A stretch of 64,000 bases of DNA, taken from the NCBI GenBank assembly GCA_043826565.1, contig JBDRPX010000038.1, positions 70,334 to 134,333 of the forward strand, in the 5' to 3' direction. The stretch comes from Candidatus Omnitrophota bacterium. Its GTDB lineage: Bacteria; Omnitrophota; Gorgyraeia; B26-G9. The notes under the pieces are model-generated. The model was not told where the DNA came from. It saw only the letters and a list, made by a program, of their open reading frames with translations, and made no database searches. The position numbers and the translations under genes are program-made. Of this stretch, positions 80 to 20,976 are shown piece by piece; within the stretch, counting starts at the first letter, position 1, and every line of letters begins with the position of its first letter.

Positions 80-1300
80 ATGAAAGTCGTAAGATTTACC
101 GGGAAGACCTTGGAGAATATTTATAGCCGATCGGCAAAAAGAAAATTGCGGGTAAAAAATACTGTGGAAAGAATCCTCCATGATGTAAGCGTTAATGGAG
201 ATAAAGCTTTGATTAAATATACCAAGAAGTTTGACCGAGTTTCCTTAACTGCCCGGCAAATTAAAGTTAGTGAAGCGGAGACTAATGGGGCTTATCAGAA
301 TATTGATGCTGAACTCATTTCCAGTTTAAAGCTGGCGATTAATAATATTACGAGTTTTTATAAAAGACAGCTTAAAAAATCCTGGAGAATAAAACAGGAT
401 GACGGTGTTGTCTTAGGTGAAATCCTCCGGCCTATTGAAAAAGTAGGAGTATATGTTCCGAGTGGAACAGCGCCGTTGGTATCTTCCGTTTATATGAGTG
501 TTTTGCCGGCAAAAATAGCCGGAGTTAATGAAATATATTTGGCTACTCCGCCGAATGCTAACGGGGAAGTCAACCCCTATATTTTAGCTGTAGCAAATCT
601 TTTAAAGGTAAATGCGGTTTATAAAATCGGCGGGGCTCATGCTATCGCAGCTTTAGCTTTTGGAACAAAAGTTGTTCCCAAGGTAGATAAGATTGTCGGG
701 CCGGGTAATGACTATGTGACCGAAGCAAAGCGTCAGGTTTTTGGTTATGTTGATATAGATATGCTGGCCGGGCCAAGTGAAGTTGTGGTAATTGCTAATA
801 ATTTTGCTAATCCGGCTCATGTTATAGCTGATTTGCAATCTCAGGCTGAGCATACGCGGGGTATTGGGATTTTGATAACTACTTCCAAGAAATTAGCACG
901 GATTGTCCGCAATGAAGTTATAAACGGATATTGTATACTTGTTAAAAACCTAGATGAAGCGGTCGAGGTATCTAATAAAATTGCGCCGGAACATTTAGAA
1001 ATTTTGGTAAAACAACCCAATACATTGCTGAAAAAAATTAAAAATGCCGGAGCTGTTTTTGTGGGGCCGTATTCGCCGGTGGTTGTCGGTGATTATATCT
1101 CCGGGCCGAGCCATGTACTGCCGACATCCGGCACAGCTAGATTTTTCTCAGGGCTAGGGGTTAATGATTTTATCAAGAGTACACATCTAATAAGCTATAA
1201 TAAGAAAGCGTTGGAGAAAGTAGCTCCGGCAGTTGAGAAAATTGCGTCGCTTGAGGGTATGAAGAAACATATTGCTTCCTTAAAATCAAGGTTTGAATAG
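80..1300 (+). CDS. hisD: histidinol dehydrogenase
   Basis: 406 aa ORF with typical HisD length and conserved Zn-binding region (…QAEHT…). GGAG RBS upstream of the ATG. First gene of the his cluster. Confidence 0.85.
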   Translation: MKVVRFTGKTLENIYSRSAKRKLRVKNTVERILHDVSVNGDKALIKYTKKFDRVSLTARQIKVSEAETNGAYQNIDAELISSLKLAINNITSFYKRQLKKSWRIKQDDGVVLGEILRPIEKVGVYVPSGTAPLVSSVYMSVLPAKIAGVNEIYLATPPNANGEVNPYILAVANLLKVNAVYKIGGAHAIAALAFGTKVVPKVDKIVGPGNDYVTEAKRQVFGYVDIDMLAGPSEVVVIANNFANPAHVIADLQSQAEHTRGIGILITTSKKLARIVRNEVINGYCILVKNLDEAVEVSNKIAPEHLEILVKQPNTLLKKIKNAGAVFVGPYSPVVVGDYISGPSHVLPTSGTARFFSGLGVNDFIKSTHLISYNKKALEKVAPAVEKIASLEGMKKHIASLKSRFE

Positions 1301-1313
1301 ACGGGGTGATACG

Positions 1314-1946
1314 ATGATAGAAAAAAGAAGTTCGGAAATTATAAGAAAAACAAATGAAGTCGATATAAATGGGCAGTTGGTTATTGATGGCTGCGGACAG
1401 GCACAGATTAGTACAGGGTTTGAACCATTGAATCATTTGCTTACTCTTTTTGCATTTCATGGTTTGTTTGATTTGAAAATCCAGGCATCCGGTGATTTAC
1501 CGCATCATATAATTGAAGATTTGGGAATCGCTTTAGGTAAGGCCTTTAAACAGGCTCTGGGTGAAAAGGAAAGTATTAACCGGTATGGTTGTTTTACTGT
1601 AGCTATGGATAAGGTAGCTGTTGAAGTTGCTTTAGATATAAGCGGGAGACCGTCATTACAGGGAATAAAGTTAGGAAACAATGATGATGCTCAAGGTATT
1701 ATTCATGTTTTAGAGAATTCAACTTTTGATAATACGGATTTTACCTTTAAACATGCTGAGGAATTTTTGGAATCTTTCCTCCAGCACGCAGGGATTAGTC
1801 TTGTTTATATAATTAAATCAGGAGAAGGTGATTTGCATCATATTTTAGAGGCATTGTTTAAAGCCATGGGTAAGGCTCTTGATCAAGCAACAATGATAGA
1901 TATCCGAAGAAGCGGTGTTCCCTCAACAAAAGGGATAATTGATTAA
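1314..1946 (+). CDS. hisB: imidazoleglycerol-phosphate dehydratase
   Basis: IGPD motifs (DLxIQASGDLxHHIIEDLGIALG, HxxEAxFKAxG). The ORF opens at 1293, but the ATG at 1314 (MIEKR) avoids overlap and is the preferred start. Confidence 0.8.
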   Translation: MIEKRSSEIIRKTNEVDINGQLVIDGCGQAQISTGFEPLNHLLTLFAFHGLFDLKIQASGDLPHHIIEDLGIALGKAFKQALGEKESINRYGCFTVAMDKVAVEVALDISGRPSLQGIKLGNNDDAQGIIHVLENSTFDNTDFTFKHAEEFLESFLQHAGISLVYIIKSGEGDLHHILEALFKAMGKALDQATMIDIRRSGVPSTKGIID

Positions 1947-1951
1947 CGATT

Positions 1952-2713
1952 ATGATTGTTATACCAGCTATAGATATTAGAAATGGGCGGGTTGTACGTC
2001 TTCTGCGGGGAGAGTATGATAAAGAAACCGTGTATGAGGAGTATCCGCTTACCATAGCTCAGAGATGGGCTAATGACGGTGCGGAGTTAATTCATATTGT
2101 TAACTTAGATGGTGCTCTTACCGGAGATCTTAAACAAATTAGTGTTGTTAAGCAGATTGTAGATGTTTTAAAGGTTAAGGTTCAATTCGGCGGCGGGATT
2201 AGGTCTGTCGATAATGTTAAAACAGTTTTTGATACCGGTGTATATAAAGTCATAGTTGGAACAAAAGCTTTTGTGGATGATAATTTTTTACCAATTGTTG
2301 TTAAAGATCCCCAATTGCAGGACAAAGTGGATAGAATTATTATCAGTATTGACTGCAAAAAAGACGTTTCTAGCGATGAGTATATCGTACAGCATACTGG
2401 TTGGACGGATGCTACTGATTATACTGCTAAGCAGGCATTGAAATATTTACAGGAGATGGGTATAAAAACTGCTGTGGTTACAGATATCAGTAAAGATGGA
2501 ACATTATCCGGTCCGAATTTCCAGTTTTTGGAGCAAGTACTTAAGGCAACGACATTAGATATTATCGCATCAGGCGGAGTGTCTAGTATTGAAGATATCG
2601 AAAATTTAAATATACTAGGTAATAAATACAGTAATCTTCAGGGAGTAATCATCGGCAAAGCTCTATATGAAGGAACAATTAATCTCAAGGAGGCTATTGA
2701 ATTATGCAGGTAA
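1952..2713 (+). CDS. hisA: ProFAR isomerase (HisA)
   Basis: N-terminus [20 protein letters not shown] is the HisA signature rather than HisF. 253 aa with two (βα)4 halves. Confidence 0.75.
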
Positions 2714-3069
2714 AACGACCGTTGTGCAAACCGTTAAAATTAAAAAACATCAAATCTGTAAATGATCTTAAATTTGATGATAACGGGTTGATCCCAACTA
2801 TTGTGCAGGATATAAAAGATAAGCAGGTTTTAATGGTTGCTTATATGAGCAAAGAATCATTAAAGAGGACTCTAAAAACCGGACTGGCTACTTACTGGTC
2901 AAGATCCCGAAAATGCTTTTGGTTAAAAGGTGATACTTCCGGTCATTTTCAAGTAGTGAAGAAAATATATTTTGACTGTGATAAAGACACTATTTTGCTG
3001 GAGGTTAAACAGCTCGGGGTTGCTTGTCACACGGGGGAAAGGTCATGTTTCTTTACGCGCATGGCGTAA
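2704..3069 (+). CDS. hisI: phosphoribosyl-AMP cyclohydrolase
   Basis: 121 aa with the HisI motif (…GLIPTIVQD…[16 protein letters not shown]…WSRSR…). Overlaps the hisA stop. Confidence 0.8.
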
Positions 3070-3148
3070 GAGTTCATGGCTCATAGCTGATAGCTTATAG
3101 GAAAAACAGGATTATGGTTTTATTTTAGAATTTTTGTTTTTAGTCTTA

Positions 3149-3174
3149 TAACTTGGAACCTGTAACTTGTAACT
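3149..3174. repeat. AACTTG / TGTAACT tandem motif in trpE leader
   Basis: TAACTTG at 3149-3155, then TGTAACTTGTAACT at 3161-3174, about 15 nt upstream of the trpE ATG. Confidence 0.5.
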
Positions 3175-3188
3175 TTTAATTTAAAATT

Positions 3189-4685
3189 ATGTATTATCCA
3201 TCAAAAAAAGAATTTAAAAAACTAAGTAAAAAAGGAAATTTAATTCCGGTTTATCGGGAGCTGGTTGCGGATTTGGAAACTCCAGTGTCGGCTTTTATGA
3301 AAATCGATACGGGAAGGTATTCTTATTTACTTGAATCAGTGGAAGGGCAGGAGAAAATTGCCCGGTATTCTTTTTTAGGCAGCAATCCGTCGTTATTGCT
3401 TAAAATAAAAGACAATAATGTTTGGATACATGAAAAAAGCGGATCTAAATTCAAAGAAAAAAAGTATAAGCTGGAAAAAGACCCTATTGAAGAAATAAAA
3501 AAAATTATTCAGCAGTATAAATTTGTTGATGTGCCCGGATTGCCCCGTTTTTGCGGCGGGCTTGTCGGTTATATTAGTTATGATACCGTAAGGTTTTTTG
3601 AAAAAATTCCCGATAAAAATCCGGATGATTTAAAATTACCGGATGCAGTTTTTATGCTAACTGATACAATTTTAATCTTTGATCATATCGCGCATAAAAT
3701 TAAAATCGTTTCCAATGTCCATATTCAGGATAAATCTGCTTCCGGCTTAGATGATATATACGAAAAATCCATAAAGAAAATTGATCATATTGCGGATATG
3801 CTTAGCCGTAAACTTAAGGCTCATCGTAAATCTAAACGATCCGGTGCGGTTAAAGTAAAGTCTAATATGACCAAAAGTGAGTTTAAGAAAGCTGTAGAAA
3901 AGGCAAAGAAATATATTATTGCCGGAGATATTATTCAGACAGTTATTTCACAGAGATTTAGTGCGAAGATCAGTATGCCGGCGATTGACTTATATCGTGC
4001 GTTAAGGACAATCAACCCTTCCCCGTACATGTATTATTTGAAATTGGGGGATATGAAAATTGTCGGGGCATCTCCGGAAGTTATGGTGCGTTGCGAGGCG
4101 AATATTGCGGAAGTCAGGCCCATAGCCGGCACGCGAAAAAGAGGTAAAGATGAAGATGAAGATAAAAAATTAAGTATTGAACTGCTGAATGATCCTAAAG
4201 AAAGAGCTGAGCATATTATGCTTGTGGACTTAGGGAGGAATGATCTGGGCAGGGTTTGTAAATTTGGAAGTGTGGTTGTTGAAGATCTGATGACTATTGA
4301 GAAATACTCTCATGTTATGCATATTGTCAGTGATGTGCATGGACAGATTGAAAAAGGAAAGAACGCTTTTGATGTTATTAGGGCAACTTTTCCTGCCGGA
4401 ACAGTATCCGGAGCTCCGAAAATTCGGGCAATGGAAATTATTGATGAGTTGGAAAATGTGCGGCGCGGCCCATATGCAGGAAGTATCGGATATTTTAGTT
4501 TTTCCGGCAATATAGATACATGTATTACGATCAGGACTATTGTTTGTAAAGGGAATAAAGCGTATGTCCAGGCCGGTGCCGGTATTGTTGCTGATTCTGT
4601 GCCGGAAAAAGAATATCAGGAAACAGTGAACAAGGCCCAAGCTATGTTAAAATCTATTGAAGTGGCTCAAGAGGGATTGTTATGA
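3189..4685 (+). CDS. trpE: anthranilate synthase component I
   Basis: 498 aa. Chorismate-binding domain motifs (…SPEVMVRC…RPIAGTRKRG…GAPKIRAMEII…). Confidence 0.9.
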   Translation: MYYPSKKEFKKLSKKGNLIPVYRELVADLETPVSAFMKIDTGRYSYLLESVEGQEKIARYSFLGSNPSLLLKIKDNNVWIHEKSGSKFKEKKYKLEKDPIEEIKKIIQQYKFVDVPGLPRFCGGLVGYISYDTVRFFEKIPDKNPDDLKLPDAVFMLTDTILIFDHIAHKIKIVSNVHIQDKSASGLDDIYEKSIKKIDHIADMLSRKLKAHRKSKRSGAVKVKSNMTKSEFKKAVEKAKKYIIAGDIIQTVISQRFSAKISMPAIDLYRALRTINPSPYMYYLKLGDMKIVGASPEVMVRCEANIAEVRPIAGTRKRGKDEDEDKKLSIELLNDPKERAEHIMLVDLGRNDLGRVCKFGSVVVEDLMTIEKYSHVMHIVSDVHGQIEKGKNAFDVIRATFPAGTVSGAPKIRAMEIIDELENVRRGPYAGSIGYFSFSGNIDTCITIRTIVCKGNKAYVQAGAGIVADSVPEKEYQETVNKAQAMLKSIEVAQEGLL

Positions 4686-5260
4686 TTTTATTAATCGATA
4701 ATTATGATTCATTTACTTATAATCTTGTGCAATATTTTGGTGAATTAAAACAAAAAATAAGTGTGGTAAGAAATGATAAAACAACTCTAGATAAGATTAC
4801 CAGGCTTAAGCCGGATCATATTGTGATTTCTCCCGGGCCTTGTACTCCGAAAGAAGCCGGCTTATCCTGTGCTATTGTGAAAAAATTTGCCGGAAAAGTC
4901 CCTTTATTGGGCGTTTGTCTGGGGCATCAATGTATTGGGTATGCGTTCGGAGCAAAAATAGTCAAAGCCAATGTTTTAATGCACGGGAAAACTTCAAGAA
5001 TTTTCCATGATAAGAAATCAATTTTTAAAAATATTCCCAATCCGTTTGTTGCCACTAGATACCATTCGCTTATTATTAAGGAAAATACATTGCCGGATGT
5101 TTTTAAGATAACGGCGCGTACTAAAGAGGGTACAATTATGGGGATCGAGCACCGTAAGTTTCCAATTTGGGGAGTGCAATTTCATCCGGAAGCGATATTA
5201 ACAGTTGAGGGCAAACACATTCTGGCAAACTTTTTAAACGAGAGGCAGGAGAATGATTAA
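4682..5260 (+). CDS. trpG: anthranilate synthase component II / glutamine amidotransferase
   Basis: Class I glutamine amidotransferase with the catalytic GVCLGHQ motif. ATGA overlap with trpE. Confidence 0.85.
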   Translation: MILLIDNYDSFTYNLVQYFGELKQKISVVRNDKTTLDKITRLKPDHIVISPGPCTPKEAGLSCAIVKKFAGKVPLLGVCLGHQCIGYAFGAKIVKANVLMHGKTSRIFHDKKSIFKNIPNPFVATRYHSLIIKENTLPDVFKITARTKEGTIMGIEHRKFPIWGVQFHPEAILTVEGKHILANFLNERQEND

Positions 5261-6272
5261 AGACGGAATCAAGAAAGTTGTCGTTAAGGAAAGTTTGTCT
5301 CAAGGAGAAATGGAGCAAATTTTTTCTCAAATCATGAATGGAGAAACAACTCCTGCGCAAATTGCCGCTTTTATTGTCGGATTACGGATGAAAGGGGAGA
5401 CAGTTGATGAAATTACCGGAGCGGCTAAAATAATGAGGGAGTTTGCGTCAAAGGTAAATGTCAAGAGTGCTATTATATTGGATACTTGCGGAACCGGGGG
5501 GGATCGAAAAAATACGATCAATATCTCTACTTTAACCGCATTGGTGGCCAGCGGTGCCGGAGTAACTGTTGCCAAGCATGGGAATCGCAGTGTTTCTAGT
5601 AAATCAGGAAGTGCGGACTTACTCGAAGAATTAGGAGTTAATCTTGGAGTTGATGTCAGTGTAGTCGAAAAATGCGTAAATGATATCGGTATCGGTTTTT
5701 TGTTTGCGCCTAATTTGCATAAAGCAATGAAATATGCTATTGGCCCAAGAAGAGAAATCGGGGTCAGGACGATTTTTAATATTCTCGGCCCGCTGACTAA
5801 TCCGGCAGAGGCTACGCATCAACTGCTGGGGATATTCGATCGGGATTTGTGTGCGCCGATTGCTAATGTTTTAAAAAATCTGGGGGTAAAACATGCGGTT
5901 GTGGTGCACGGTGTTGATGGAGTTGATGAAGTAAGCACTGTTGCTGAAACACACGTTTGTGAATTAAAGGACGGGGAAATAACTAGTTATGAAGTAACTC
6001 CTGAGCAATTTGGTATCAAAAGAACAACTATCGAGAGTTTACAGATTTCCAGTCCCGCAGAAGGTGCGGAAAAAGCATTGGAAATTTTAGACGCAAAGAA
6101 GGGGCCGATGTATGATGCGGTTCTTTTAAATTCAGCATTTGCTATATATGCGGCTGATCAGACGGTGACCGTGGAAGAGGCTATGTTGCTTGCTCAAGAA
6201 AGTTTAGATGAAGGAAAGGCAAAAGAAAAACTTAACCTGCTAATAAAATATACTAATGAAAACAATTCTTGA
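5253..6272 (+). CDS. trpD: anthranilate phosphoribosyltransferase
   Basis: Has the GTGGD motif and the GPLTNP motif. 339 aa. Confidence 0.9.
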   Translation: MIKDGIKKVVVKESLSQGEMEQIFSQIMNGETTPAQIAAFIVGLRMKGETVDEITGAAKIMREFASKVNVKSAIILDTCGTGGDRKNTINISTLTALVASGAGVTVAKHGNRSVSSKSGSADLLEELGVNLGVDVSVVEKCVNDIGIGFLFAPNLHKAMKYAIGPRREIGVRTIFNILGPLTNPAEATHQLLGIFDRDLCAPIANVLKNLGVKHAVVVHGVDGVDEVSTVAETHVCELKDGEITSYEVTPEQFGIKRTTIESLQISSPAEGAEKALEILDAKKGPMYDAVLLNSAFAIYAADQTVTVEEAMLLAQESLDEGKAKEKLNLLIKYTNENNS

Positions 6273-7047
6273 TAAAATAGTTGAAGAGAAAAAAAAAGAG
6301 ATAAAGATCGCAAAACAAAATATTTCTCGAGCTGAGATATTAGAGAAGCTAAGTAAAAAGAAAATTAACTGCCGGGATTTTAAAAAGTGCCTGGTTGCCG
6401 GTAATCGGATTAATTTTATTGGTGAGCTTAAGAAAGCTTCTCCGGTTAAGGGGGTTTTGCGCAAAGAGTTTGACCTGATTAAAACAGCATTAATATATGA
6501 AAAAGAAAATATTAGTGCTATTTCGGTTTTAACTGATAAACATTTCTGCGGGAGTCTTTCGGACGTCAAAAAAGTCAAAAATGCAACAACTTTACCTGTT
6601 TTACGCAAAGATTTCATTATCGAAGAGTATCAATTATATGAGTCCTTGCTGGCGAGAGCGGATGCAGTGCTTTTGATCGCTTCGATTTTACCAAAGAATA
6701 CGCTTACTAAAATGCTTAAAATTGTCCATTCATTAGGGATGAGTGCCTTGGTGGAAGTGCATAATCAACATGATATTGAAAAAGTTGATTTTAGACATGC
6801 AGATATTATAGGTATAAATAATCGAGATCTTAGGAATTTTAAAACTGATTTACATATAACTGAAAAATTATTAAAAAAGATTCCTTTTGGTAAGATTGTT
6901 ATTAGTGAAAGCGGAATAAAGAGCCGGGCACAGGTACGTTTTCTGGAGGATTTGGGGGTCAATGCCCTGCTTATTGGCGAAGGTATTGTTCGGTCGAAAG
7001 ACATAACCGCGAAGATCCGAAATCTACAAGGGAGAAAAAATGCCTAA
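6256..7047 (+). CDS. trpC: indole-3-glycerol phosphate synthase
   Basis: IGPS motifs (IGELKKASP…, LRKDFIIEEYQ, GINNRDL). Confidence 0.85.
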   Translation: MKTILDKIVEEKKKEIKIAKQNISRAEILEKLSKKKINCRDFKKCLVAGNRINFIGELKKASPVKGVLRKEFDLIKTALIYEKENISAISVLTDKHFCGSLSDVKKVKNATTLPVLRKDFIIEEYQLYESLLARADAVLLIASILPKNTLTKMLKIVHSLGMSALVEVHNQHDIEKVDFRHADIIGINNRDLRNFKTDLHITEKLLKKIPFGKIVISESGIKSRAQVRFLEDLGVNALLIGEGIVRSKDITAKIRNLQGRKNA

Positions 7048-7663
7048 GGTCAAAATTTGCGGTATAACCAATAAGCGCGATGCCCTTAATGCTGTAAAAT
7101 TGGGGGCTGATGCAATTGGTTTTATGTTTGCCAAAAGTCCTCGCAGAATATCTGTTGACACAGCGGCAGGTATTATTAAAGAATTACCGCCGTTTGTTTC
7201 TACGGTTGGTGTTTTTGTTGATGCGGATAAAGAGAAGGTTTTGTCTATACTTAAAAAGTGCAAATTGGATGTACTGCAATTCCATGGGCAGGAAAATGAT
7301 AACTACTGTCTTTTCTTTAAAAAATATTGTAAAATAATAAAAGCATTCCGGCTGCAGGATCATAATTCCTTAAAACTGATCCGCAAGTATAAAAACATTG
7401 ATGCTATTCTTTGTGATAGCTTTGATGCGAAAAAGATCGGAGGGACCGGTAAGGTTTTTAAATGGGATTTGCTAAAAGGGGTTAAATTTAATAAACCTTT
7501 AATAATTGCCGGAGGTGTTTCTTCTATAAATGCAAAGGGAATAGTTGGGTTATTAGCACCTTTTGCCTTGGATATTTCCAGCGGAGTGGAATCGTCTCCG
7601 GGAAAAAAAAGCGAGAGAATGATGCGTGATTTTATGAACGAGGTTAACAAAATAACACTTTAA
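7040..7663 (+). CDS. trpF: phosphoribosylanthranilate isomerase
   Basis: Starts MPKVKICGIT; 207 aa; matches the PRAI fold. Confidence 0.85.
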   Translation: MPKVKICGITNKRDALNAVKLGADAIGFMFAKSPRRISVDTAAGIIKELPPFVSTVGVFVDADKEKVLSILKKCKLDVLQFHGQENDNYCLFFKKYCKIIKAFRLQDHNSLKLIRKYKNIDAILCDSFDAKKIGGTGKVFKWDLLKGVKFNKPLIIAGGVSSINAKGIVGLLAPFALDISSGVESSPGKKSERMMRDFMNEVNKITL

Positions 7664-7724
7664 AAGCAAAAAAGTGAGAGTTGAGAATAGATGATTGAAA
7701 ATTGTAAAAGCCAGTCAGTGATTT

Positions 7725-7759
7725 TTCAATATTCAATATTCAATGCTCAATTTTCAAAC
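7725..7759. repeat. five tandem heptads TTCAATA/TTCAATG/CTCAATT/TTCAAAC
   Basis: Read directly from the sequence. Bracketed by a 10-bp inverted repeat, TTGAAAATTG (7695-7704) and CAATTTTCAA (7748-7757). Confidence 0.6.
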
Positions 7760-7774
7760 TTGATGAGGTGATTT

Positions 7775-8536
7775 ATGAATGAAAGAAAAGAAAAGATGAA
7801 TGTGAAAAAATTCTCTGAGAATGATATTCAAAAGAAGCTTTATGGTGATACCGGATTTAAAAAGAAAACAATCGCTAAAGAAAAAGAGGATATGCACGAG
7901 AATAATGAGGCTTATTTGGATAAGGATATTCAGGAAGAGATAGATGCCTTAAAGACGGCGATAACAAATCTTGAGCAAACACTTAAAAAAACAGAAGGGC
8001 AAAAAGAACGGTTAAAGAAGAAGCTTGTACAGCGAAGATTTGTGATAAATTTGAAGGATCGAGTTCTAAATAATATTATAAGCAAAGTTCCTGAAAAAGT
8101 TATAATTCTGATTCCGGTGTTGGTTATTATCTTGCTTATGATTATAGTTTTTAACTTGCACAATGAAACTGCCCCGGTTACAACAACTGATGTTACTGTA
8201 GTAGAGGAAGTTATAAATGTTCCCCAAAAGAAAATAGCGGTTGCTTCGGCAAAAGAACCTGATTCCGAAAAAGTTGGTATTGGTGAAAAAAAGTATACAC
8301 TTCAGGTTGCCGAATATTCTAATGAGCAGGCCGCAGTTAAGTTTGTTGGCGACTTGGAACAACAAGGATTCACCGTGGCACTTAAGACAATATATCGCGG
8401 GGATGATAAAAGTCGTCCATATTTTAAAGTTAATGTGGGCGTATTCGGATCTTTTAATGAAGCCAAGAAGTTCATGGAAGCATTTGAAAGAAAAACAGGA
8501 ATAAAGGATTCTTTCATAAAACAGGAGATTAACTAG
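7775..8536 (+). CDS. SPOR-domain membrane protein inserted in the trp operon
   Basis: N-terminal coiled coil, one TM helix, and a C-terminal SPOR peptidoglycan-binding domain ([18 protein letters not shown]…[18 protein letters not shown]). Confidence 0.7.
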
Positions 8537-8538
8537 AG

Positions 8539-10520: not shown

Positions 10521-12223
10521 CTGATTATGATCGCCTGGGTGAATTACTAATCCAGAAAAAGATTATAACTGAGGAGCAGCTTGAAAATGCATTAATCAGG
10601 CAGAAAAAGTCTAATTTAAGACTTGGCGAAGAGCTCATTCGCAGTGGGATGGTAAATGAGGAAAGTGTTTTATCTATTCTTGCGGAATCGATGAATATAC
10701 CGTTTATAAAATTAAGAGACGAAACAATAGACGAACAGCTTATTGAAAAGATTCCCGCCCGTTTTGTTACTCACTATAATTTCATGCCTTTACGTGAGGA
10801 TGGGGGAATTCTCGCTATTGCGATTAGTGACCCCCATGATTTATATACCATAGATGAGATAAGATTATTATTAAAACAGCCGTTGAAAATATTTTTGGCA
10901 ACTTCTTTAGAAATAAGTGAGGCGATAAAGAAATTTTATGGGGTGGGAGCCAAAACTATGGCCCAGATGTTTGAAGATTCCCAACAGCTGGAAATTATTC
11001 CTCAGAAAGAAAAAGACATTACCCAAGAAAGTGCCGATGGAACAGACGACCCTTCGGTAATAAATTTTATAGATCAGGTTATCCGCCAGGCAGTAAAGGA
11101 AAGAGCTACTGATATACATATTGAGCCTTATGAAGGTAATTTGCGTTTAAGGTATAGGATTGATGGTTTGCTTTACGATGTGCCTGTTCCTTCGACAATA
11201 CATCATTTTCAATCGGCAATTTTTATTAGGTTAAAAATTATGTCGGATTTGGATATTGCCGAAAAAAGATTACCGCAAGACGGCAGGATAAAAGTTAGGG
11301 TCGATGGTGAGTTTTATGATTTGAGAATTTCAATTTTGCCGACAAATTTCGGGGAAAGTATAGAAATAAGAATACTTTCCAGGAAACAGATATTTTTTAA
11401 TTTAGAACAACTAGGGCTGGATAAGATCGGCTTAGCTATCCTTAATAGCATGATAAAACGGCCGCATGGGATAATTCTGGTTACCGGGCCCACTGGCAGC
11501 GGAAAAACCACCACGTTGTATTCATGTTTAAACAAGATTAACGCTGCCGAAAGAAAGATTATAACGATTGAAGATCCTATAGAATACCAGCTTCAGGGAG
11601 TTACGCAAGTACAGGTTAGGCCTAAGATCAATCTTACCTTTGCGGATGGTTTGCGCTCTATGCTCAGACATGATCCGGATATCATGATGGTCGGAGAAAT
11701 TCGTGATTTAGAAACAGCAGAGTTGGCCATAAGAACGGCCTTGACCGGTCATTTGGTGTTCAGTACTTTGCATACTAATGATGCTCCGGGAGCGGTTGCC
11801 CGTTTATTGGATATGGGAATTGAGCCATATTTGGTAGCATCTTCACTTGATTGTGTGATTGCTCAGCGTTTGGTGCGTTTGGTATGTCCGCATTGCAAAG
11901 AAAAAATCAAGCTTCATGAAGAGTTGCTTAGGGAATTTGGAATAAGCACGGAAAAACTCATTGCCCAGGAGTTCTGCCAAGGACGTGGATGTGAAAAATG
12001 TAACTTCACCGGGTATCATGGCCGTACGGCTATTTTTGAAGTGCTTAATATCGATGATTCCATTAAAGAAATGATCCTTAATCGTATCCCGACTAATACA
12101 ATTAAACAAAAAGCTATTGAAAATAAATTAAAAACACTTAGACAGTCAGGATGGGAAAAAGTGATTGCCGGATTGACAACTCCTGAGGAAGTAATTCGTG
12201 TAACGCAGGAAGATACTATATAA
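10517..12223 (+). CDS. gspE: GspE/PilB-type secretion ATPase with N-terminal MshEN-like motifs
   Basis: Walker A GPTGSGKTTT and a C-terminal tetracysteine (CPHC…CEKC). The N-terminal GSPII_E_N carries two RLGxxLxxxGxIxxxxLxxALxxQ-like repeats (RLGELLIQKKIITEEQLENALIRQ, RLGEELIRSGMVNEESVLSILAE). Start overlaps the trpA stop (ATGA). Confidence 0.88.
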   Translation: MTDYDRLGELLIQKKIITEEQLENALIRQKKSNLRLGEELIRSGMVNEESVLSILAESMNIPFIKLRDETIDEQLIEKIPARFVTHYNFMPLREDGGILAIAISDPHDLYTIDEIRLLLKQPLKIFLATSLEISEAIKKFYGVGAKTMAQMFEDSQQLEIIPQKEKDITQESADGTDDPSVINFIDQVIRQAVKERATDIHIEPYEGNLRLRYRIDGLLYDVPVPSTIHHFQSAIFIRLKIMSDLDIAEKRLPQDGRIKVRVDGEFYDLRISILPTNFGESIEIRILSRKQIFFNLEQLGLDKIGLAILNSMIKRPHGIILVTGPTGSGKTTTLYSCLNKINAAERKIITIEDPIEYQLQGVTQVQVRPKINLTFADGLRSMLRHDPDIMMVGEIRDLETAELAIRTALTGHLVFSTLHTNDAPGAVARLLDMGIEPYLVASSLDCVIAQRLVRLVCPHCKEKIKLHEELLREFGISTEKLIAQEFCQGRGCEKCNFTGYHGRTAIFEVLNIDDSIKEMILNRIPTNTIKQKAIENKLKTLRQSGWEKVIAGLTTPEEVIRVTQEDTI

Positions 12224-12256
12224 AAAATCCTGTTCAGGCAGGAAGAAGGAACTATA

Positions 12257-13462
12257 ATGCCTGTTTTTATCTACAAAGCTAAAGTTAAGCCAAATGTTTT
12301 TAAAACAGGAACTATTGAAGCTGATAGTGAAAAATCCGCCGTAAATAAATTATTACAGTTAAATTACCACCCCATTTCGATAACCCTTGAAGCCGGAAGA
12401 AAATTTAAAAAACACAATTTTTTTCAGAATTTGACCGGAAAGGAAACATATATATTTCTGCGACAATTGTCAAATCTAATCCAGGCGGGGCTTCCGCTGG
12501 TAAAAGCATTGCAAAATATCAGCGTGCAAAGCAGCAACATTAAATTAAGAGTTATCGTGCAGTCGTTGAAAGAAAAAGTCCAAAAAGGAAAAACTTTATC
12601 CGAGGCATTGTCGGATTTTTCGAATTTGTTCAGTTCTCTGGAAATAAGTATGATTAAGGCGGGAGAAGCCAGTGGAACGCTTTCTGAAGTTATTGGAAAA
12701 CTTGCGGATTTAAAAGAAAATGAAATTGCTTTTTCATCAAAAATCAGATCGGCTTTGGCTTATCCGGTCCTTTTATTAGTTGTCGGATTATTAACATTAT
12801 TCATATTAACTACTTTTGTGCTGCCCAAATTCATTGTCCTCTTTCAAGATCTGGGACAGGAACTGCCGTTAATAACCCAAATTTTGATTGCGGTAAGTCT
12901 CTTTTGTAAAAACTGGTGGACAGTTATTATTGCGGTAGGTATATTTGTGGGATTCTCATTAACCGGCTATTTTAAAACGGCCGGTGGAAAACTATGGCTT
13001 GATGCTCTACAGCTGAAGACCCCGATATTAAAGGATGTCGTAACAAAAGTCCAGATTAGCCGATTTTCCCGGACCTTAGGAAGTTTAATAGAGCATGGGG
13101 TGCCTATTCTTAGTTCTCTCCAGGTTGTCGGGGAAATTGCTAGTAATAAGGTTTTTGCTTTGGAGATAAAACGGATACATTCTCAGGTTGCTAAAGGGAA
13201 AAGTATCAGTGAATGCTTGAGAGGGAGCAATATTTTTGATAAAAATACTTTAGATTTAATCTCAGTTGGCGAAGAAGGAGGGCAATTAGAAGAAATGCTT
13301 TTGCGTATAGCAAAGATGAACGAGAGTGAGTCAGCACAAAAGATTGAATCTTTGGTATTTATGCTTGAACCTACATTAATACTAATTCTTGGCGGAGTAG
13401 TTGCGCTTATTGTTGTAGCAATTTTAATGCCGATTTTTCAGATGAATATTTTAATACAATAA
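12257..13462 (+). CDS. gspF: GspF/PilC platform protein
   Basis: 401 aa polytopic protein with the duplicated GspF domain architecture. Confidence 0.85.
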   Translation: MPVFIYKAKVKPNVFKTGTIEADSEKSAVNKLLQLNYHPISITLEAGRKFKKHNFFQNLTGKETYIFLRQLSNLIQAGLPLVKALQNISVQSSNIKLRVIVQSLKEKVQKGKTLSEALSDFSNLFSSLEISMIKAGEASGTLSEVIGKLADLKENEIAFSSKIRSALAYPVLLLVVGLLTLFILTTFVLPKFIVLFQDLGQELPLITQILIAVSLFCKNWWTVIIAVGIFVGFSLTGYFKTAGGKLWLDALQLKTPILKDVVTKVQISRFSRTLGSLIEHGVPILSSLQVVGEIASNKVFALEIKRIHSQVAKGKSISECLRGSNIFDKNTLDLISVGEEGGQLEEMLLRIAKMNESESAQKIESLVFMLEPTLILILGGVVALIVVAILMPIFQMNILIQ

Positions 13463-13485
13463 TATTATTTAATAAGGGGGGGCGA

Positions 13486-13929
13486 ATGCTAAGTGGAAAA
13501 ACAGGATTTACCCGGACAGAGGCAGGGTTTACTTTGATTGAATTAATGCTTGTTGTAATCATCATCGGAACATTGGCGGCGATAGTTATTCCGCGTTTTA
13601 CTGGTCGAGCTGAGCAGGCTCGTAATACCGCGGCAAAGGCTGATCTACTTTCTAACATACCGCTTGCTCTTGATTTATATGAATTGGATAATGGGAGTTT
13701 TCCTACTACTGAGCAGGGGTTGGCTTCACTTGTGCAAAAGCCAAACATTTCGCCTTTACCTAAAAACTGGAATGGCCCATATCTTAAAAAAAAGCCGGTA
13801 GACCCTTGGGGGCAGCAATATGTCTATGTTAGTCCGGGAGTGCATAATAAAGACGACTATGATCTGCATTCGCTGGGTAAAGACGGCGTTGCCGGAGGCG
13901 GGGATGACCTTACCAATTGGGAAGAATAA
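13486..13929 (+). CDS. gspG: major pseudopilin GspG
   Basis: Prepilin leader and cleavage motif G|FTLIELMLVV with Glu at +5. GspG-type C-terminal region (…DPWGQQYVY…). Confidence 0.85.
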   Translation: MLSGKTGFTRTEAGFTLIELMLVVIIIGTLAAIVIPRFTGRAEQARNTAAKADLLSNIPLALDLYELDNGSFPTTEQGLASLVQKPNISPLPKNWNGPYLKKKPVDPWGQQYVYVSPGVHNKDDYDLHSLGKDGVAGGGDDLTNWEE

Positions 13930-14398
13930 TCATGGATTTACATTAATTGAATTACTTGCGGTCATATTAATAATTTCTGTATTAATAAGCCTCAGTATTC
14001 CCACGATAACTAAAACAGCCAGAAAATTTTATTTTATTAATAAAATAAAAACAATAGCTTGCCTTTTTAAATATGTGCGTAATTTGGCGGTATTAGAACA
14101 GAGGGAGTATGAAGCGATTATTGATAGTGACGCTAACACCCTGGAAATTAAACGCCTTGATGAGAATGAATTTACGGAAAAAGAGTTTAAGGCGATCAAT
14201 GATTCTATTTTAAGAGCTCGCAATCTTCCGGATGGATTTTTTATTAAAATGGGAAATGATGATCTAAAGACCAAAGAGATATTCTTTTATCCAAACGGCA
14301 GCTTAACAAGCACAGATATCTATGTTTATGATAAAAAGAACCATGCCGCCCGGATTACGTTGACTGTTAGCGGGCAAATTGTCATGGAGTTTTTATGA
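13904..14398 (+). CDS. minor pseudopilin (GspH-like)
   Basis: ATG at 13904, then KNNHG|FTLIELLAVILI prepilin motif. Overlaps the gspG end by 26 nt. Confidence 0.7.
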   Translation: MTLPIGKNNHGFTLIELLAVILIISVLISLSIPTITKTARKFYFINKIKTIACLFKYVRNLAVLEQREYEAIIDSDANTLEIKRLDENEFTEKEFKAINDSILRARNLPDGFFIKMGNDDLKTKEIFFYPNGSLTSTDIYVYDKKNHAARITLTVSGQIVMEFL

Positions 14399-14757
14399 TT
14401 AAAAAAAAACCGGGGTTTATTTTATTAGAAGTGTTGGTATCTTTGGTTATATTGACTGCGGGTATCTTGGTTCTGATTAGGTCGTTATCCAATATAGTTA
14501 AGAGTAATACAATAATACAAACAAATACTGTTGCCGTTCTATTAGTCGATAATTTATTTACCCGAATTGATTCTGATGAAAAAATTGATGATGAAAATAG
14601 TATGGAAATATTAGGTAAGCAATTTTTTTGGCAGCAGCAGACAACAACCATAAAAGATGATCTTAAAAAAATGATGCTCACTGTTTCTACGGGGGAAAAC
14701 AGCCGGGGAATCAAAACTATTTTTAGCAGCACTTTTATAGACACAGAAGATCAGTAA
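14395..14757 (+). CDS. minor pseudopilin (GspI-like)
   Basis: KKPG|FILLEVLVSL prepilin motif; 120 aa. ATGA overlap with the preceding gene. Confidence 0.65.
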   Translation: MIKKKPGFILLEVLVSLVILTAGILVLIRSLSNIVKSNTIIQTNTVAVLLVDNLFTRIDSDEKIDDENSMEILGKQFFWQQQTTTIKDDLKKMMLTVSTGENSRGIKTIFSSTFIDTEDQ

Positions 14758-14812
14758 ATTAAATTTTAAGCGGATTGACATTTTTAGAGAGTAGATATAA
14801 ACTATTAATACT

Positions 14813-16003
14813 ATGACGATTTCAGTAGGGATTGGGAAAAGCAAGGAGATTGATTCATTTGCCGCCGGAGCTTTGGCAGTTGCCGAAGCTCTTGATATGA
14901 TGGGCAGCAATGATCCGGATATATTATTTTGCTTTGCTTCATCCAGGTTTGAGCATTTTGAACTTATTCGCGGTGTGAAAAGTACGGTATCTTCAGCACC
15001 GCTTATCGGCTGTACAACAGCAGGCGAAATAACATCTAAAGGACCGGATACAAAGTCAGTTGTTATTTTAGCGCTAAAATCTGATAATCTTCATGCGGCG
15101 ATTGGAATAGGTAAGAATATTAGCAAACAATCCCGAACTGCGGGACAAGAAGTAGCCCGGGACACAGTTATTAAAACAAGGCGGGGAGCAATACGTCATG
15201 CTTTTATGATGTTTCCGGATGGGTTAAAAGGTAATAGCGCTGATATTATTAGAGGTGTTCAGGAGGTCCTGGGAACTAGTTTCCCGATTGTCGGTGGAGC
15301 CGCGGCAGATGATTTTCTCTTTCAAAAGACTTATCAGTATTATGATGACGGCGTGTTTGATGATAGTGTCGGAGGTGTTTTATTCTCCGGGGATATTAGT
15401 TTCGGTATTGGAGCGCGTCATGGCTGGTATCCTTTGGGAAAACCAAGGATTGTAACTGCTGCCGAGCATAATATAATCAAAAAACTTGATGGAAAGCCGG
15501 CGGCGAGGATTTATGAGGATTATTTTGGGAAGCGTGTGGCTGATTTGCAAAACGAACCGATGGCCCGGATGTCAGTCATGTATCCTTTGGGTATGAGTAT
15601 TCCCGGCGAGGAAGAGTGTATTGTTAGAAATGCTTTAAGAGTTGATGCGGAGGGATCTTTGATTTGCGCTGGTGAAGTCCCCAAGGGCTCTGAGATCAGG
15701 GTAATGATGGGATCAAAGGAAACCGCATTAAAAGCAGCAAAAAAAGCGTCTCAAATAGCCTTGGGTGCTTTACGTAAATCCAAGGCCGAAGTGGTGTTTG
15801 TTTTTGATTCTGTATCCCGGGGAAGGTTGTTTGGAAGAAATGCTTCTCAGGAGATTGATGTAGTTAAGGAAATTTTCGGAGTAAATACCCCGATAATCGG
15901 GTTTTATACTTATGGGGAACAAGCTCCGTTGGGTGCGACGATTAATTTGGGGCAGACATTTTTTCATAATGAAACAATTGTTGTTTTTGCATTAGGAGAG
16001 TAA
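14813..16003 (+). CDS. FIST-domain sensor protein
   Basis: 396 aa with the FIST_N/FIST_C layout (…GFYTYGEQAPLG… C-terminal signature). Confidence 0.7.
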   Translation: MTISVGIGKSKEIDSFAAGALAVAEALDMMGSNDPDILFCFASSRFEHFELIRGVKSTVSSAPLIGCTTAGEITSKGPDTKSVVILALKSDNLHAAIGIGKNISKQSRTAGQEVARDTVIKTRRGAIRHAFMMFPDGLKGNSADIIRGVQEVLGTSFPIVGGAAADDFLFQKTYQYYDDGVFDDSVGGVLFSGDISFGIGARHGWYPLGKPRIVTAAEHNIIKKLDGKPAARIYEDYFGKRVADLQNEPMARMSVMYPLGMSIPGEEECIVRNALRVDAEGSLICAGEVPKGSEIRVMMGSKETALKAAKKASQIALGALRKSKAEVVFVFDSVSRGRLFGRNASQEIDVVKEIFGVNTPIIGFYTYGEQAPLGATINLGQTFFHNETIVVFALGE

Positions 16004-16008
16004 AGTTT

Positions 16009-17589
16009 GTGAAAATCAATATTTGGTTAATACTGATAATCGGGGCTGCTGTACTTAGCGTAGTGGTTATTGTTGATAGCATGGTTGCTAAGCTAATGGG
16101 CGGGTTTATACTTTTGGTATTATTAGCATATCTGGCGGAACTTTCCCGAGAGGAAAGAGAGCAGATCTATAAAATGCAGCGTGCTTTGGATAAATTAAGA
16201 AATGCATATAGTGAACTGGATGAACAGGCAAAAATTATTATTCGCACTGACTTAGAACTAAATCGCACACAAGAAGAGCTGGATAAGAAAATTAACGGTT
16301 TATATACGCTGCATGAACTTGGAAAACTAATGAGTTCCGCGCTTGATGTTCAAAAGCTTTTTGCCCAGATAACTGAACCGCTTATTCTTAAACTTGGGTT
16401 TGAGAAAACTATTATATTTCTTAACGAAGGTATTCCTCCTAAAGCCGAATGTAAGGCTTGTATCGGACTTAGCCATTCCCGCATTGAGGAGCTTAAGCAG
16501 GAGCATCTAAAAAGCGAGTTCCTTAAAGGGGTTTTTGAAAGCGGTAGTTCTATTCTTGTTAAAAGCCGGGAGTCGGCAAACCCGGAAGAACGCATATGGC
16601 TTAAATTCTTTGATGTTTCTTCATTTGTAATTGTTCCGATTGTTATAAAAGAGCAGGTGGAAGGGTATATCTTCGTCGGGAACAATAATCCTTATGTGCA
16701 TATTTCCGAGGGTGATATTGATTTAATGTTTATTTTATCAAATCAGGTTGCCGTTGCTTTGGAAAATGCCCGTCTTTATGAAGAATTAAAACGCTCTCAT
16801 GATGAGCTGGAAATTCGCGTGGAAGAAAGAACCCGTGAATTGGCGGAAGCGAATACTAAACTTGTAAAACTTGACAAGATGAAGTCTGACTTTGTGTCTG
16901 CTGTTTCGCATGAATTACGTACTCCGCTTACTTCCATAAAAGGATATGCGGCAATTCTTGGTGCCGGCCGGCTGGGGGATGTCTCAGATGTACAAAAAGA
17001 AAAATTAAATAAAATCAATGTGCATAGTGATGAATTGATTAAGCTGGTAAATGATCTTTTAGATATCGCGCGGATAGAATCCGGCAAAATCGGCATGAGT
17101 ATTAAACATTCATCATTAACTGATATAATTAAGAGTGTGGCTGACTTATTCTTTCCTCAGACTGATGAAAAGAATATTAATTTAGTGCTCAATATGCCGG
17201 AGGAAGCATTATTGGTTTGGATGGATCCGAGCCAAATATCCCGTGTTTTTATAAATTTAATTGGTAATGCATTGAAATTCACGCCTCAAGGCGGTGAAAT
17301 AGCCATACGTGTTTTACCGGGTGATGATTTTATAACTGTTGAAGTTGCCGACTCAGGTATCGGGATAAGTAGAGAAGATTTAGCCCGGGTTTTTGATGAG
17401 TTTTATCGGGTTGACAACGCAATTAATGTTGAGAAAAAAGGAACTGGTTTAGGTTTGCCGCTGGTCAGTAAAATTGTGGCTGCACATAAAGGAAAAATCT
17501 GGGTTTCAAGTGAACTGGGTAAGGGGACAACATTTCATTTTACGTTATCCACTAATAAGGTGGAAGATTCACAGATAAATGTTGCTTGA
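16009..17589 (+). CDS. membrane GAF-domain sensor histidine kinase
   Basis: GTG start 5 nt after the FIST stop. Two TM helices, a GAF domain, an H-box SHELRTPL, and HATPase_c motifs (GNALKFT, DSGIGI, GTGLGL). Confidence 0.85.
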   Translation: MKINIWLILIIGAAVLSVVVIVDSMVAKLMGGFILLVLLAYLAELSREEREQIYKMQRALDKLRNAYSELDEQAKIIIRTDLELNRTQEELDKKINGLYTLHELGKLMSSALDVQKLFAQITEPLILKLGFEKTIIFLNEGIPPKAECKACIGLSHSRIEELKQEHLKSEFLKGVFESGSSILVKSRESANPEERIWLKFFDVSSFVIVPIVIKEQVEGYIFVGNNNPYVHISEGDIDLMFILSNQVAVALENARLYEELKRSHDELEIRVEERTRELAEANTKLVKLDKMKSDFVSAVSHELRTPLTSIKGYAAILGAGRLGDVSDVQKEKLNKINVHSDELIKLVNDLLDIARIESGKIGMSIKHSSLTDIIKSVADLFFPQTDEKNINLVLNMPEEALLVWMDPSQISRVFINLIGNALKFTPQGGEIAIRVLPGDDFITVEVADSGIGISREDLARVFDEFYRVDNAINVEKKGTGLGLPLVSKIVAAHKGKIWVSSELGKGTTFHFTLSTNKVEDSQINVA

Positions 17590-17597
17590 AAGGAAAA

Positions 17598-18536
17598 ATG
17601 AGGAAGCAGAAAATTCTTATTGTTGATGATGAGCCGGATATTCGTGATGTGTTAAAGATTACGCTTGAGTGCGAAGGATATGATGTCGTTGAATCTACCG
17701 ATGGGATAGACGGTCTTTCCAAAGTGCATAAAGCAGCTCCGGATCTTGTAATTTTGGATAATAAGATGCCGAAGATGACCGGGCAAGAAGTGTGTGAGAT
17801 ATTAAAAAAAGATATCCTTCTGAGGCATATGCCGATTATTATGCTGACCGGAAAAGGAGAGATCCAGGATAAAATTAAAGGAATTGACGCCGGAGCAGAT
17901 GATTATATAGTAAAGCCGTTTGAGCCGCAAGAGCTGGTTGCGAGAATAAAAATGATTTTACGTAGAAGTTCACGAGATTTGGATGCTAATCCGTTAAGTC
18001 GTTTGCCGGGAAATGCGACAATCTTAAGTGAATTGGAAGATGCGATAAAAAGTAATAAACCCTTTGCCATATGCTATCTGGATCTTGACAAATTTAAATC
18101 TTTTAACGATACTTATGGATTTGAACATGGAGATGAGGTTATCCGGGAAACCGCCAGAATTATTCTCATGACAGTTATCGAAATGGGGAACAAAGAGGAC
18201 TTTGTCGGACATATCGGTGGTGATGATTTTGTTGTACTTACTACTTTGGATAAAGCAGAGCCTATTTGTAAAAAAATAATTGAGGCTTTCGACAAAGTTG
18301 CTCCGGCTTTTTATAATTTAGAGGACCGGCAGCGAAAATATATTCTGGCTAAAGATCGGAAGGGGAATGCGGAAAAGATTCCGCTGATTTCAATCTCGAT
18401 AGGAATTGTAACGAATGAGTTTCGGACGATTACCCATGTGGCGGAAATTGGCGAAATCGGAGCGGATTTAAAGAAACTGGCAAAGGCAACTCCGGAAAGC
18501 AATTATGTCCGAGACAGCCGTAAAACTGAAGCATAA
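17598..18536 (+). CDS. response regulator: REC + GGDEF-like domain (GGDDF variant)
   Basis: REC domain (ILIVDDEPD…LDNKMP). The GGDEF fold is recognisable (LDLDKFKSFNDTYGFEHGDEV…HIGGDDFVV), but the signature reads GGDDF and the I-site RxxD is replaced by KED. Confidence 0.75.
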   Translation: MRKQKILIVDDEPDIRDVLKITLECEGYDVVESTDGIDGLSKVHKAAPDLVILDNKMPKMTGQEVCEILKKDILLRHMPIIMLTGKGEIQDKIKGIDAGADDYIVKPFEPQELVARIKMILRRSSRDLDANPLSRLPGNATILSELEDAIKSNKPFAICYLDLDKFKSFNDTYGFEHGDEVIRETARIILMTVIEMGNKEDFVGHIGGDDFVVLTTLDKAEPICKKIIEAFDKVAPAFYNLEDRQRKYILAKDRKGNAEKIPLISISIGIVTNEFRTITHVAEIGEIGADLKKLAKATPESNYVRDSRKTEA

Positions 18537-18766
18537 AATATCCAATGTCTAAAAAACCTCCTAAACCAACAGACCATGATTTTTGGTTTATTAATAATGT
18601 CCGCCACAGTAATTCAATAAATAAACTTAATAAGCGACAAGAGCGTATCCTGAAAAAAGTTCGTTTGTGGGAAAAATACCATGGAGCTTTAGATCAAAAA
18701 GAGTGGAAATTCTGATGCTGAATATAAGTACTTATCCTTATAAAATGTTTTTGGTATAATAATTTT

Positions 18767-19126: not shown

Positions 19127-19203
19127 AGAATAAGGTTGACAAAAATAATTGACTTTTTTATGAAATAACAGAATATATTTGGAGAAAATTTAAATCACAA
19201 TGG

Positions 19204-19510: not shown

Positions 19511-19570
19511 AAATAAAGATGTTGTGATATCTATATTCAAATTATCCTATTAAGAAATTAATTAGAACCA

Positions 19571-19599
19571 TTGACAATACAACCATTTGATTGTATACT
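19571..19599 (+). promoter_or_regulatory. sigma70-like promoter with embedded operator-like palindrome for the TA operon
   Basis: TTGACA, 17-nt spacer, TATACT. The spacer contains ATACAAccatttgaTTGTAT. Confidence 0.5.
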
Positions 19600-19622
19600 T
19601 TAAATGAAGGGATGAAAGAAGA

Positions 19623-20018: not shown

Positions 20019-20019
20019 A

Positions 20020-20951: not shown

Positions 20952-20976
20952 GTTTAAAATAAGAAAAGGCGAATAT

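Follow-up and report, generated by a model that had tools for sequence, protein, structure and literature searches.

Twenty genes at positions 80-18536 of a 64,000-nucleotide stretch of Candidatus Omnitrophota DNA (GenBank assembly GCA_043826565.1, contig JBDRPX010000038.1, positions 70,334 to 134,333; the whole stretch is here called the window) are probably better regarded as a chain of four modules in a compact, strand-biased genome than as one functional super-operon. The genes follow each other head to tail on the + strand in the order hisDBAI, trpEGDCF-(SPOR)-trpBA, gspE-F-G-H-I and FIST / GAF-kinase / REC-GGDDF, and a preliminary description had taken them for a single 18.5-kb super-operon. 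In the reading preferred here, hisDBAI and trpEGDCF-SPOR-trpBA would be ordinary biosynthetic operons, whereas the gsp genes would be a truncated set of the type II secretion system (T2SS) type that became joined to the 3' end of trpA in one clade, without room for a promoter of their own. The last three genes would form a sensory cassette of the nosP-nosK-nosR type, with its own promoter at leaderless distance.

The evidence against a single operon is located at its 3' end. Upstream of the FIST gene (14813-16003) lies a promoter-like element, TTGACA-N17-TAAACT (14775-14803, + strand), and as just 9 nt, without a Shine-Dalgarno sequence, separate the end of its -10 hexamer from the FIST ATG, the FIST mRNA is probably leaderless or near-leaderless. 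The element, in the form TTGAC[AT]-N17-TA[AG]ACT directly upstream of the FIST start, was found at every clade locus checked (seven loci), and also in front of a relocated cassette (L171). Its cores TTGAC and TA.ACTA, with their fixed spacing, do not vary among the window, L002, L003, L084/L104, L085 and L171; L005 has the element as well, but with a leader of 36 nt. Between gspI and the element, L003 has an inserted nitroreductase gene. In GCA_023819605.1 the trp-gsp block (L086) is followed, behind gspI, by an unrelated sigma-54 regulator and a HATPase/FGE-sulfatase kinase-type protein, and the cassette of FIST, histidine kinase and response regulator is found with the same upstream element on another contig (L171), beside a Y1 transposase and several toxin-antitoxin pairs. 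By these comparisons, the three genes are a mobile and apparently self-promoted unit, and one operon of 18.5 kb is contradicted, since the cassette has its own conserved element and moves as a unit.

Outside the clade, the cassette is observed in different surroundings. In L170, which lacks trp genes and gspEF, the genes for FIST (67% identical), GAF-kinase and regulator (66%) come after gspG (69%)-gspH-gspI. The cassette of L168 is oriented divergently from a rotamase-RcpC-secretin-ATPase (Tad-like) cluster, that of L081 is convergent with gspEFG, and that of L169 lies in a mobile-element context only. Judged from this synteny, the association of the cassette with filament genes is older than the trp junction, and the best argument for a link between cassette and filament is that FIST directly adjoins gspI (gspI>FIST) in the clade as well as in L170.

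The junction between trpA and gspE is a different matter. The stop codon of trpA and the start codon of gspE do overlap in the window (ATGA, 10517-10520, + strand), as was noted before, with a GGGAG Shine-Dalgarno sequence 7 nt upstream, inside trpA, and the gspE start at 10517 agrees with the N-termini of its homologues (568-569 aa, MxxxxxLGELL). The preliminary description had also considered that this adjacency could be a chance juxtaposition absent from all relatives. It is kept in 11 Omnitrophota contigs of one clade, with a spacing of -4 to +21 nt, and thus exceeds an accident of one genome. Every one of these 11 junctions has a Shine-Dalgarno sequence for gspE and nothing else in the spacer. 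The overlap of -4 is found in the window and in L089 only, the other nine contigs having +9 to +21 nt, and translational coupling, which had been proposed from the overlap, is with 2 of 11 contigs not a conserved feature. The long contigs L002, L003, L084, L085 and L086, with GspE 66-84% identical to that of the window, all show the order his - trpEGDCF - SPOR - trpBA - gspEFGHI, and a scan with the TrpA alignment, independent of the GspE search, added the junction contigs L089-L093; across the 11 clade contigs, identities are 66-100% for GspE and 51-100% for TrpA. About 60 outgroup trp operons (TrpA at most 56% identical) contain neither the SPOR insertion nor a downstream gspE, and about 78 outgroup GTDB gspE loci (45-57% identity) have no trp gene upstream.

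The SPOR gene (7775-8536) encodes a bitopic membrane protein of which the C-terminal domain is, according to Pfam, a SPOR (septal peptidoglycan-binding) domain. It splits the trp operon, with trpF in front and trpB 2 nt behind, and occurs in exactly those contigs that have the trpA-gspE junction; in L086, trpF and SPOR are called as a single fusion of 523 aa. On this distribution, the trpA-gspE junction was formed a single time, at or near the time of the SPOR insertion. With a single origin, the conservation of the junction alone therefore reflects inheritance and not recurrent selection, and is by itself no argument for function. A second SPOR paralogue is present in the window at 50589-51224.

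With respect to transcription, no terminator-like hairpin is present at the trpA end or junction, and a search of the gaps for intrinsic terminators gave none that was convincing; the sole strong hairpin in the gaps of the block (7670-7754, see below) is peculiar to the window. The last ~100 nt of trpA and the spacer show no promoter-like motif conserved across six genomes, and another five junctions that were inspected gave the same result. Matches to a sigma-70-like consensus occur at chance rate (63 found vs 62 expected), though promoters in Omnitrophota are uncharacterised. As the gap is at most 21 nt, without a terminator and without a conserved promoter-like motif in the trpA end, read-through from the trp, or perhaps the his, promoter is the most likely source of gsp transcripts, so that the co-transcription of trp and pilus genes proposed in the preliminary description is likely as far as can be judged from sequence. 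A dependence of gsp on an upstream promoter would hold the junction intact without any functional link, and as such a junction would be hard to break, it could explain an unbroken block next to diverging flanks behind the regulator gene. A described linkage of trp with gspE or pilB was not found within the literature searched.

The tight spacing of the genes cannot carry the argument for a functional unit. All 20 open reading frames (ORFs) are present on the + strand in the ORF list, and their identities were obtained from Pfam and NCBIfam profile scans, with NCBIfam scores judged against curated cut-offs, which bears out the layout reported before. The close packing that had been thought noteworthy is real, but it is not special in this genome: 60 consecutive + strand genes extend over 80-55187 under strong positive GC skew, and the 59 junctions between them have a median gap of 5 nt, with 39 at 25 nt or less and 20 overlaps, eight of them of 4 nt. 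Such 4-nt overlaps also join pairs without evident functional link (Memo-AMMECR1>REC, HIT>guaA, ATPase>metallophosphatase), a PilZ-T2SSE ATPase gene starts 32 nt after dnaE, and in the outgroup locus L087 gspE is located behind rpoA-rplQ. As both co-directionality and tight or overlapping junctions are typical across the window, they say little about function here. Inside 80-18536 there are also two wider gaps, of 119 nt and 111 nt.

The cassette itself resembles a known sensory system. The FIST protein (396 aa; Pfam FIST 37-228, FIST_C 230-372) is a stand-alone FIST_N + FIST_C protein within the length of about 370-400 aa characteristic of NosP, and its sole NCBIfam match is NosP (NF041558), over the full length, at 113.9 bits and thus far below the equivalog cut-off of 450; a PDB sequence search with the protein gave no relative. 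The original proposal for FIST domains, made from gene neighbourhood, was that they sense amino acids. The preliminary description followed this idea and suggested sensing of amino acids or indole, which does not agree with the only curated match being a haem/NO sensor, nor with the occurrence of the cassette without trp genes in outgroups. NosP is a haem-based nitric oxide (NO) sensor, a solo FIST-FIST_C protein that is typically encoded together with a kinase and a regulator that metabolises cyclic di-GMP (c-di-GMP; PMC12570481, PMC8846402). The second gene of the cassette encodes a membrane-anchored GAF histidine kinase (16009-17589) with two transmembrane segments, a coiled coil, GAF, HisKA with H301, and HATPase_c (Pfam). 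Like the nosP-nosK-nosR systems (NosP/NahK/NarR; Pseudomonas, Legionella, Burkholderia, Vibrio), the cassette has a solo FIST gene beside a histidine kinase and a response regulator of c-di-GMP type, in the order sensor-kinase-regulator and with short gaps (5 nt between FIST and kinase, 8 nt between kinase and regulator). It differs from them in its score (114 vs 450), in a kinase that has two transmembrane segments and GAF and is not a hybrid, in a regulator output of GGDDF only, with no EAL or HD-GYP, and in that it adjoins pseudopilin genes.

The response regulator (17598-18536) consists of a REC domain with canonical receiver residues (DD14-15, D58, T88, K110) and a GGDEF-family domain. 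It starts at ATG 17598, and not at TTG 17586 as given before, and with this start it does not overlap the kinase gene; the protein of 312 aa is identical to P0121. The earlier assignment as REC-GGDEF is correct as to the domain families, but the signature is GGDDF (residues 211-215, with the ORF numbered from 17586) and not the regular cyclase motif GGDEF. A homologue search gave 3839 matches at E<=1e-30; among the 120 homologues listed (P0121-P0240), most of which are named Omnitrophota or Omnitrophica by their sources, identities are 63-83% and the signature is GGDD[FY] in all 120. The output domain aligns with PleD, with DLD, the N in FNDTYG and the D in HGDEV present; by comparison with PleD-type cyclases, these would be the residues that bind metal and guanine. 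The RxxD I-site is missing, being replaced by NKED, and the Pfam alignment of the GGDEF-family domain covers profile positions 12-108 of 161 only.

The gsp genes encode a GspE/PilB-family assembly ATPase (10517-12223; Pfam T2SSE and MshEN), a GspF/PilC-type inner-membrane platform protein (12257-13462; two Pfam T2SSF domains) and pseudopilins with N_methyl motifs (13486-14757), namely GspG (13486-13929), a GspH/ComGD-like protein (13904-14398) and a GspI-like protein (14395-14757). The first minor pseudopilin, formerly placed from 13820, starts at 13904 according to the Logan gene call. In the NCBIfam scans, the ATPase scores just below the cut-offs of both GspE (616 vs 630) and PilB (605 vs 676), GspF reaches 342 bits, below its cut-off of 424, GspG is with 158 bits above its equivalog cut-off of 89, and GspI is with 42.2 bits just below 44.35. 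The order gspE-F-G-H-I, which is canonical for T2SS gsp operons (gspC-O; e.g. L087), and a GspG that passes its equivalog model point to a T2SS-type set. Unlike a full T2SS operon, however, the set is truncated: a scan of roughly 70 ORFs across the 64-kb window gave no secretin GspD, GspC/L/M, GspJ/K or prepilin peptidase, whereas L087 carries GspJ/K/L/M/C, secretin and prepilin peptidase contiguously.

The N-terminus of the ATPase provides a possible connection with c-di-GMP. Residues 6-58 (nt 10532-10690) appear to form a tandem MshE-type c-di-GMP-binding motif, with RLGELLIQKKIITEEQLENALIRQ at residues 6-29 and RLGEELIRSGMVNEESVLSILAES at residues 35-58, separated by a 5-residue spacer. Wang et al. 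(2016, PMC5013675) defined the MshEN motif as two tandem 24-residue units, RLGxx(L/V/I)(L/V/I)xxG(L/V/I)(L/V/I)xxxxLxxxLxxQ, that are 5 residues apart. As in ATPases of the MshE/PilB2/PilF type (PMC5013675), the 53-residue tandem motif precedes a GSPII-type domain and the T2SSE ATPase; the window GspE differs from that type in having Lys and Ser at two motif positions, and in being about equally close to GspE and PilB while reaching neither equivalog cut-off. Since residues 6-57 pass the NCBIfam model of the MshE-type domain (c-di-GMP_motif, 63.2 bits, cut-off 38), control of the pseudopilus machine by c-di-GMP seems plausible. With the same model, scores are 58-63 bits for clade GspEs that have the cassette next to them and 31-34 bits for the GspEs of full-T2SS outgroups, and the L086 GspE, from which the cassette has moved away, fails with 27 bits. 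The low-scoring GspE and departed cassette of L086/L171 are a single case that fits co-evolution of cassette and receptor; as a general rule, the motif as a co-evolved, clade-specific feature was rejected, as the outgroup GspEs P0037 and P0107 also pass. A strict regular expression for the tandem motif under-called the outgroups and is not used as evidence. Further c-di-GMP genes in the window are the PilZ-T2SSE ATPase (43630-45024), a small PilZ protein (48549-48920) and a GAF-HD_5 (HD-GYP-like) protein (48942-50441); with these genes encoded, c-di-GMP signalling is plainly in use.

From these components, and by analogy with the NosP systems, I infer the following sequence of events. The soluble FIST protein presumably senses a ligand of haem, NO or redox type and modulates the kinase, which would phosphorylate the regulator; the GGDDF domain would then either make c-di-GMP or serve as a non-catalytic effector. 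Any c-di-GMP would be read by the MshE-type N-terminus of GspE and by the PilZ proteins of the window, and could in this way switch pseudopilus assembly or secretion on.

Several observations weigh against this reading of four modules and a c-di-GMP switch. The six long contigs all retain an unbroken his-trp-gsp block but have diverged in the flanks downstream of the regulator gene, and selection on a functional unit would give the same pattern. This pattern, together with a junction of -4 to +21 nt that is kept in 11 of 11 clade contigs, is also what speaks for the idea that tryptophan synthesis and the pseudopilus are one regulated unit, in which FIST would respond to an amino acid or indole and adjust c-di-GMP levels to control the pilus; moreover, in a collection of 176 complete Omnitrophota genomes (bioRxiv 10.64898/2026.06.07.730766), His and Trp biosynthesis are two of the few amino-acid pathways that were reported to be complete throughout. 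However, I consider such a unit quite improbable. Its junction arose once and is found in no outgroup trp operon or gspE locus, and 4-nt overlaps elsewhere in the window join genes without evident functional link. The FIST cassette comes with a promoter-like element of its own, offers no Shine-Dalgarno sequence for translation of a read-through transcript and is separable from gsp, L170 has the cassette and pseudopilin genes but no trp genes, the FIST protein's only curated match is to NosP, and no Trp-responsive leader, T-box or attenuator was found. It is unlikely too, if a little less so, that the genes are neighbours without being co-transcribed, with an unrecognised promoter in 3' trpA (or trpB) driving gsp and the adjacency being undisturbed ancestral synteny. 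A promoter deeper inside trpA or trpB may indeed exist, as the promoters of Omnitrophota are uncharacterised and the consensus scans did not exceed chance; gspE has its own Shine-Dalgarno sequence in every contig, and internal promoters seem to occur in the block, as upstream of the FIST gene. Yet where the FIST upstream element is invariant, the last ~100 nt of trpA and the spacer are without a conserved motif, no terminator-like hairpin separates trpA from gspE, and in two contigs the stop and start codons even overlap.

The signalling part of the preferred reading, that of a NosP-type cassette acting on a joined gsp module, has to be weighed as well. Just four outgroup contexts of the cassette were seen, and some proximity of cassette and pilus genes is expected by chance, as T2SS- and type IV pilus (T4P)-like loci are abundant in Omnitrophota. 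With 114 vs 450 bits, sensing of haem or NO by the FIST protein is an analogy only, and the MshE motif of GspE deviates at two conserved positions (Gly10->Lys in motif 1, Gln24->Ser in motif 2). The accepted active signature of diguanylate cyclases is [G/A/S]G[D/E]E[F/Y], which GGDDF does not match; it is usually treated as degenerate, and GGDDF proteins such as PA3258 have been reported inactive, the only active example reported being GSU1937, which makes cyclic GMP-AMP (cGAMP) and c-di-GMP (PMC8835794). The regulator might therefore not be a diguanylate cyclase at all, but an effector or receptor under control of phosphorylation that acts by protein contact or nucleotide binding, without making c-di-GMP. 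This alternative, compatible with the rest of the explanation given above, is tentative and the less expected one for the output domain, though clearly less remote than the two considered before. It would agree with an Asp as fourth signature residue in 120 of 120 homologues, with the partial coverage of the Pfam profile, and with the degenerate output domains that occur among NosR proteins (PMC12570481). It is opposed, apart from the activity of GSU1937, by the presence of the presumed metal- and guanine-binding residues (DLD, N, D), by strong purifying selection over the whole domain among the listed homologues, as would fit an enzyme, and by the several c-di-GMP readers and the GAF-HD-GYP-like protein encoded in the window.

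The 5' half of the block shows some features of its own. The partial his operon (80-3069) consists of hisD (80-1300), hisB (1293-1946), hisA (1952-2713) and hisI (2704-3069), identified by Pfam and NCBIfam; the third gene had been labelled hisF, but is hisA by TIGR00007 (240 bits, above the cut-off of 229). As the upstream gene ends 4 nt before hisD, the gene chain continues beyond the start of the window, and an exact look-up of the window HisD, intended to extend the locus upstream, matched no record. The trp genes trpE (3189-4685), trpG (4682-5260), trpD (5253-6272), trpC (6256-7047) and trpF (7040-7663), all assigned by Pfam, overlap at every junction, by 4-17 nt, and trpB (8539-9723) and trpA (9723-10520), also by Pfam, follow behind the SPOR gene. 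Many outgroup trp operons (L095-L167) have trpB-trpA gaps of 300-1200 nt, and a second, trpB-like gene precedes trpF in L117, L123 and L146, which suggests other small insertions within the operon.

Of the two large spacers in this half, the one between hisI and trpE (3070-3188, 119 nt) contains two period-7 tandem arrays, TCATAGC at 3074-3100 and CTTGTAA at 3145-3179. In relatives its length varies from about 18 to 194 nt according to gene calls, and neither length nor sequence is conserved. The spacer contains no Rfam leader, no T-box, and no Trp-rich leader peptide or leader ORF with Trp codons, and folds no better than shuffled sequences (z +0.9). Control of trp by a riboswitch, T-box or attenuator was rejected, as an Rfam scan of the window at gathering thresholds gave two tRNAs only. 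The spacer of 111 nt between trpF and SPOR contains the hairpin at 7670-7754, an imperfect 32-nt inverted repeat with a predicted fold of -29.5 kcal/mol (z -2.8), of which the 3' arm is a period-7 array, TTCAATA, as found by a tandem repeat search. The hairpin has one copy in the window and is absent from relatives, the spacer being just 12-19 nt in L002, L084 and L085. The three heptamer arrays (4-5 copies each; 3074-3100, 3145-3179 and 7725-7757) are the only period-7 arrays in the 64-kb window, and all fall in these two spacers of the his-trp block. Similar arrays (TAACTTG-like) are found in relatives in other spacers of the same block, namely the hisI-trpE gap of L003 and the gspE-gspF gap of L084. 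They resemble the short tandemly repeated repetitive (STRR) heptamer sequences of cyanobacteria.

A trp operon within a larger transcription unit is known from Bacillus subtilis, in which the aromatic supraoperon has the order trpEDCFBA-hisC-tyrA-aroE and the downstream genes are metabolically related (aromatic amino acids). The arrangement in the window is similar in that a trp operon is part of a longer co-directional unit with presumed read-through, in which start codons overlap the preceding stop codons and promoters probably lie inside the unit, and in that genes of the His and Trp pathways are linked. In contrast to B. subtilis, however, the downstream genes are envelope or secretion genes, and no leader of TRAP or T-box type was found.

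On the other side, 3' of the regulator gene, lies a variable island of low GC content (18537-20977; 0.30-0.33), the content of which differs in relatives. It contains a perfect 26-nt inverted repeat (19205-19230 / 19391-19416) built of GC-rich palindromes, a Gp49/HTH toxin-antitoxin pair (19623-20361) and a tRNA (20876-20948), and its non-coding stretches resemble, by eye, remnants of IS200/RAYT-type Y1 transposases (IMPNHIH..., ...YHDHIIRN...). In L084 (18447-19487) and L085 (18118-19161), the regulator gene is directly followed by a convergent gene on the minus strand for a PilT-like ATPase of 346-347 aa, which has no counterpart at the corresponding position in the window.

A more far-reaching idea is that the pseudopilus genes have been placed under a promoter responsive to his/trp starvation, so that amino-acid limitation would induce a filament for attachment or secretion, for example in contact with prey or host, with the NosP-like cassette as a second, post-translational c-di-GMP gate on the ATPase. 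I regard this as a speculation with little chance of being right; if true, it would mean that a putatively host-dependent nanobacterium controls a type-4 filament machine in two layers, by hunger plus an environmental cue.

The arrangement described here is a lineage-specific, new concatenation of known types of modules, and calls for caution in inference from gene neighbourhood: in compact, strand-biased genomes the stop and start codons of genes without evident functional link overlap, and a junction conserved throughout a clade may reflect one historical event and promoter dependence. The more reusable findings are the apparently self-promoted NosP-like cassette, the conserved REC-GGDD[FY] family and the MshE-type GspE. 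The REC-GGDD[FY] family is a large natural test case for the cyclase activity of GGDDF domains. The repeated presence of the cassette beside type-4-filament genes whose ATPase bears an MshE-type c-di-GMP motif gives rise to a testable model for the switching of a type-4-filament machine in the Omnitrophota, bacteria that lean heavily on T2SS- and T4P-like machines for their proposed predatory or host-dependent lifestyle.

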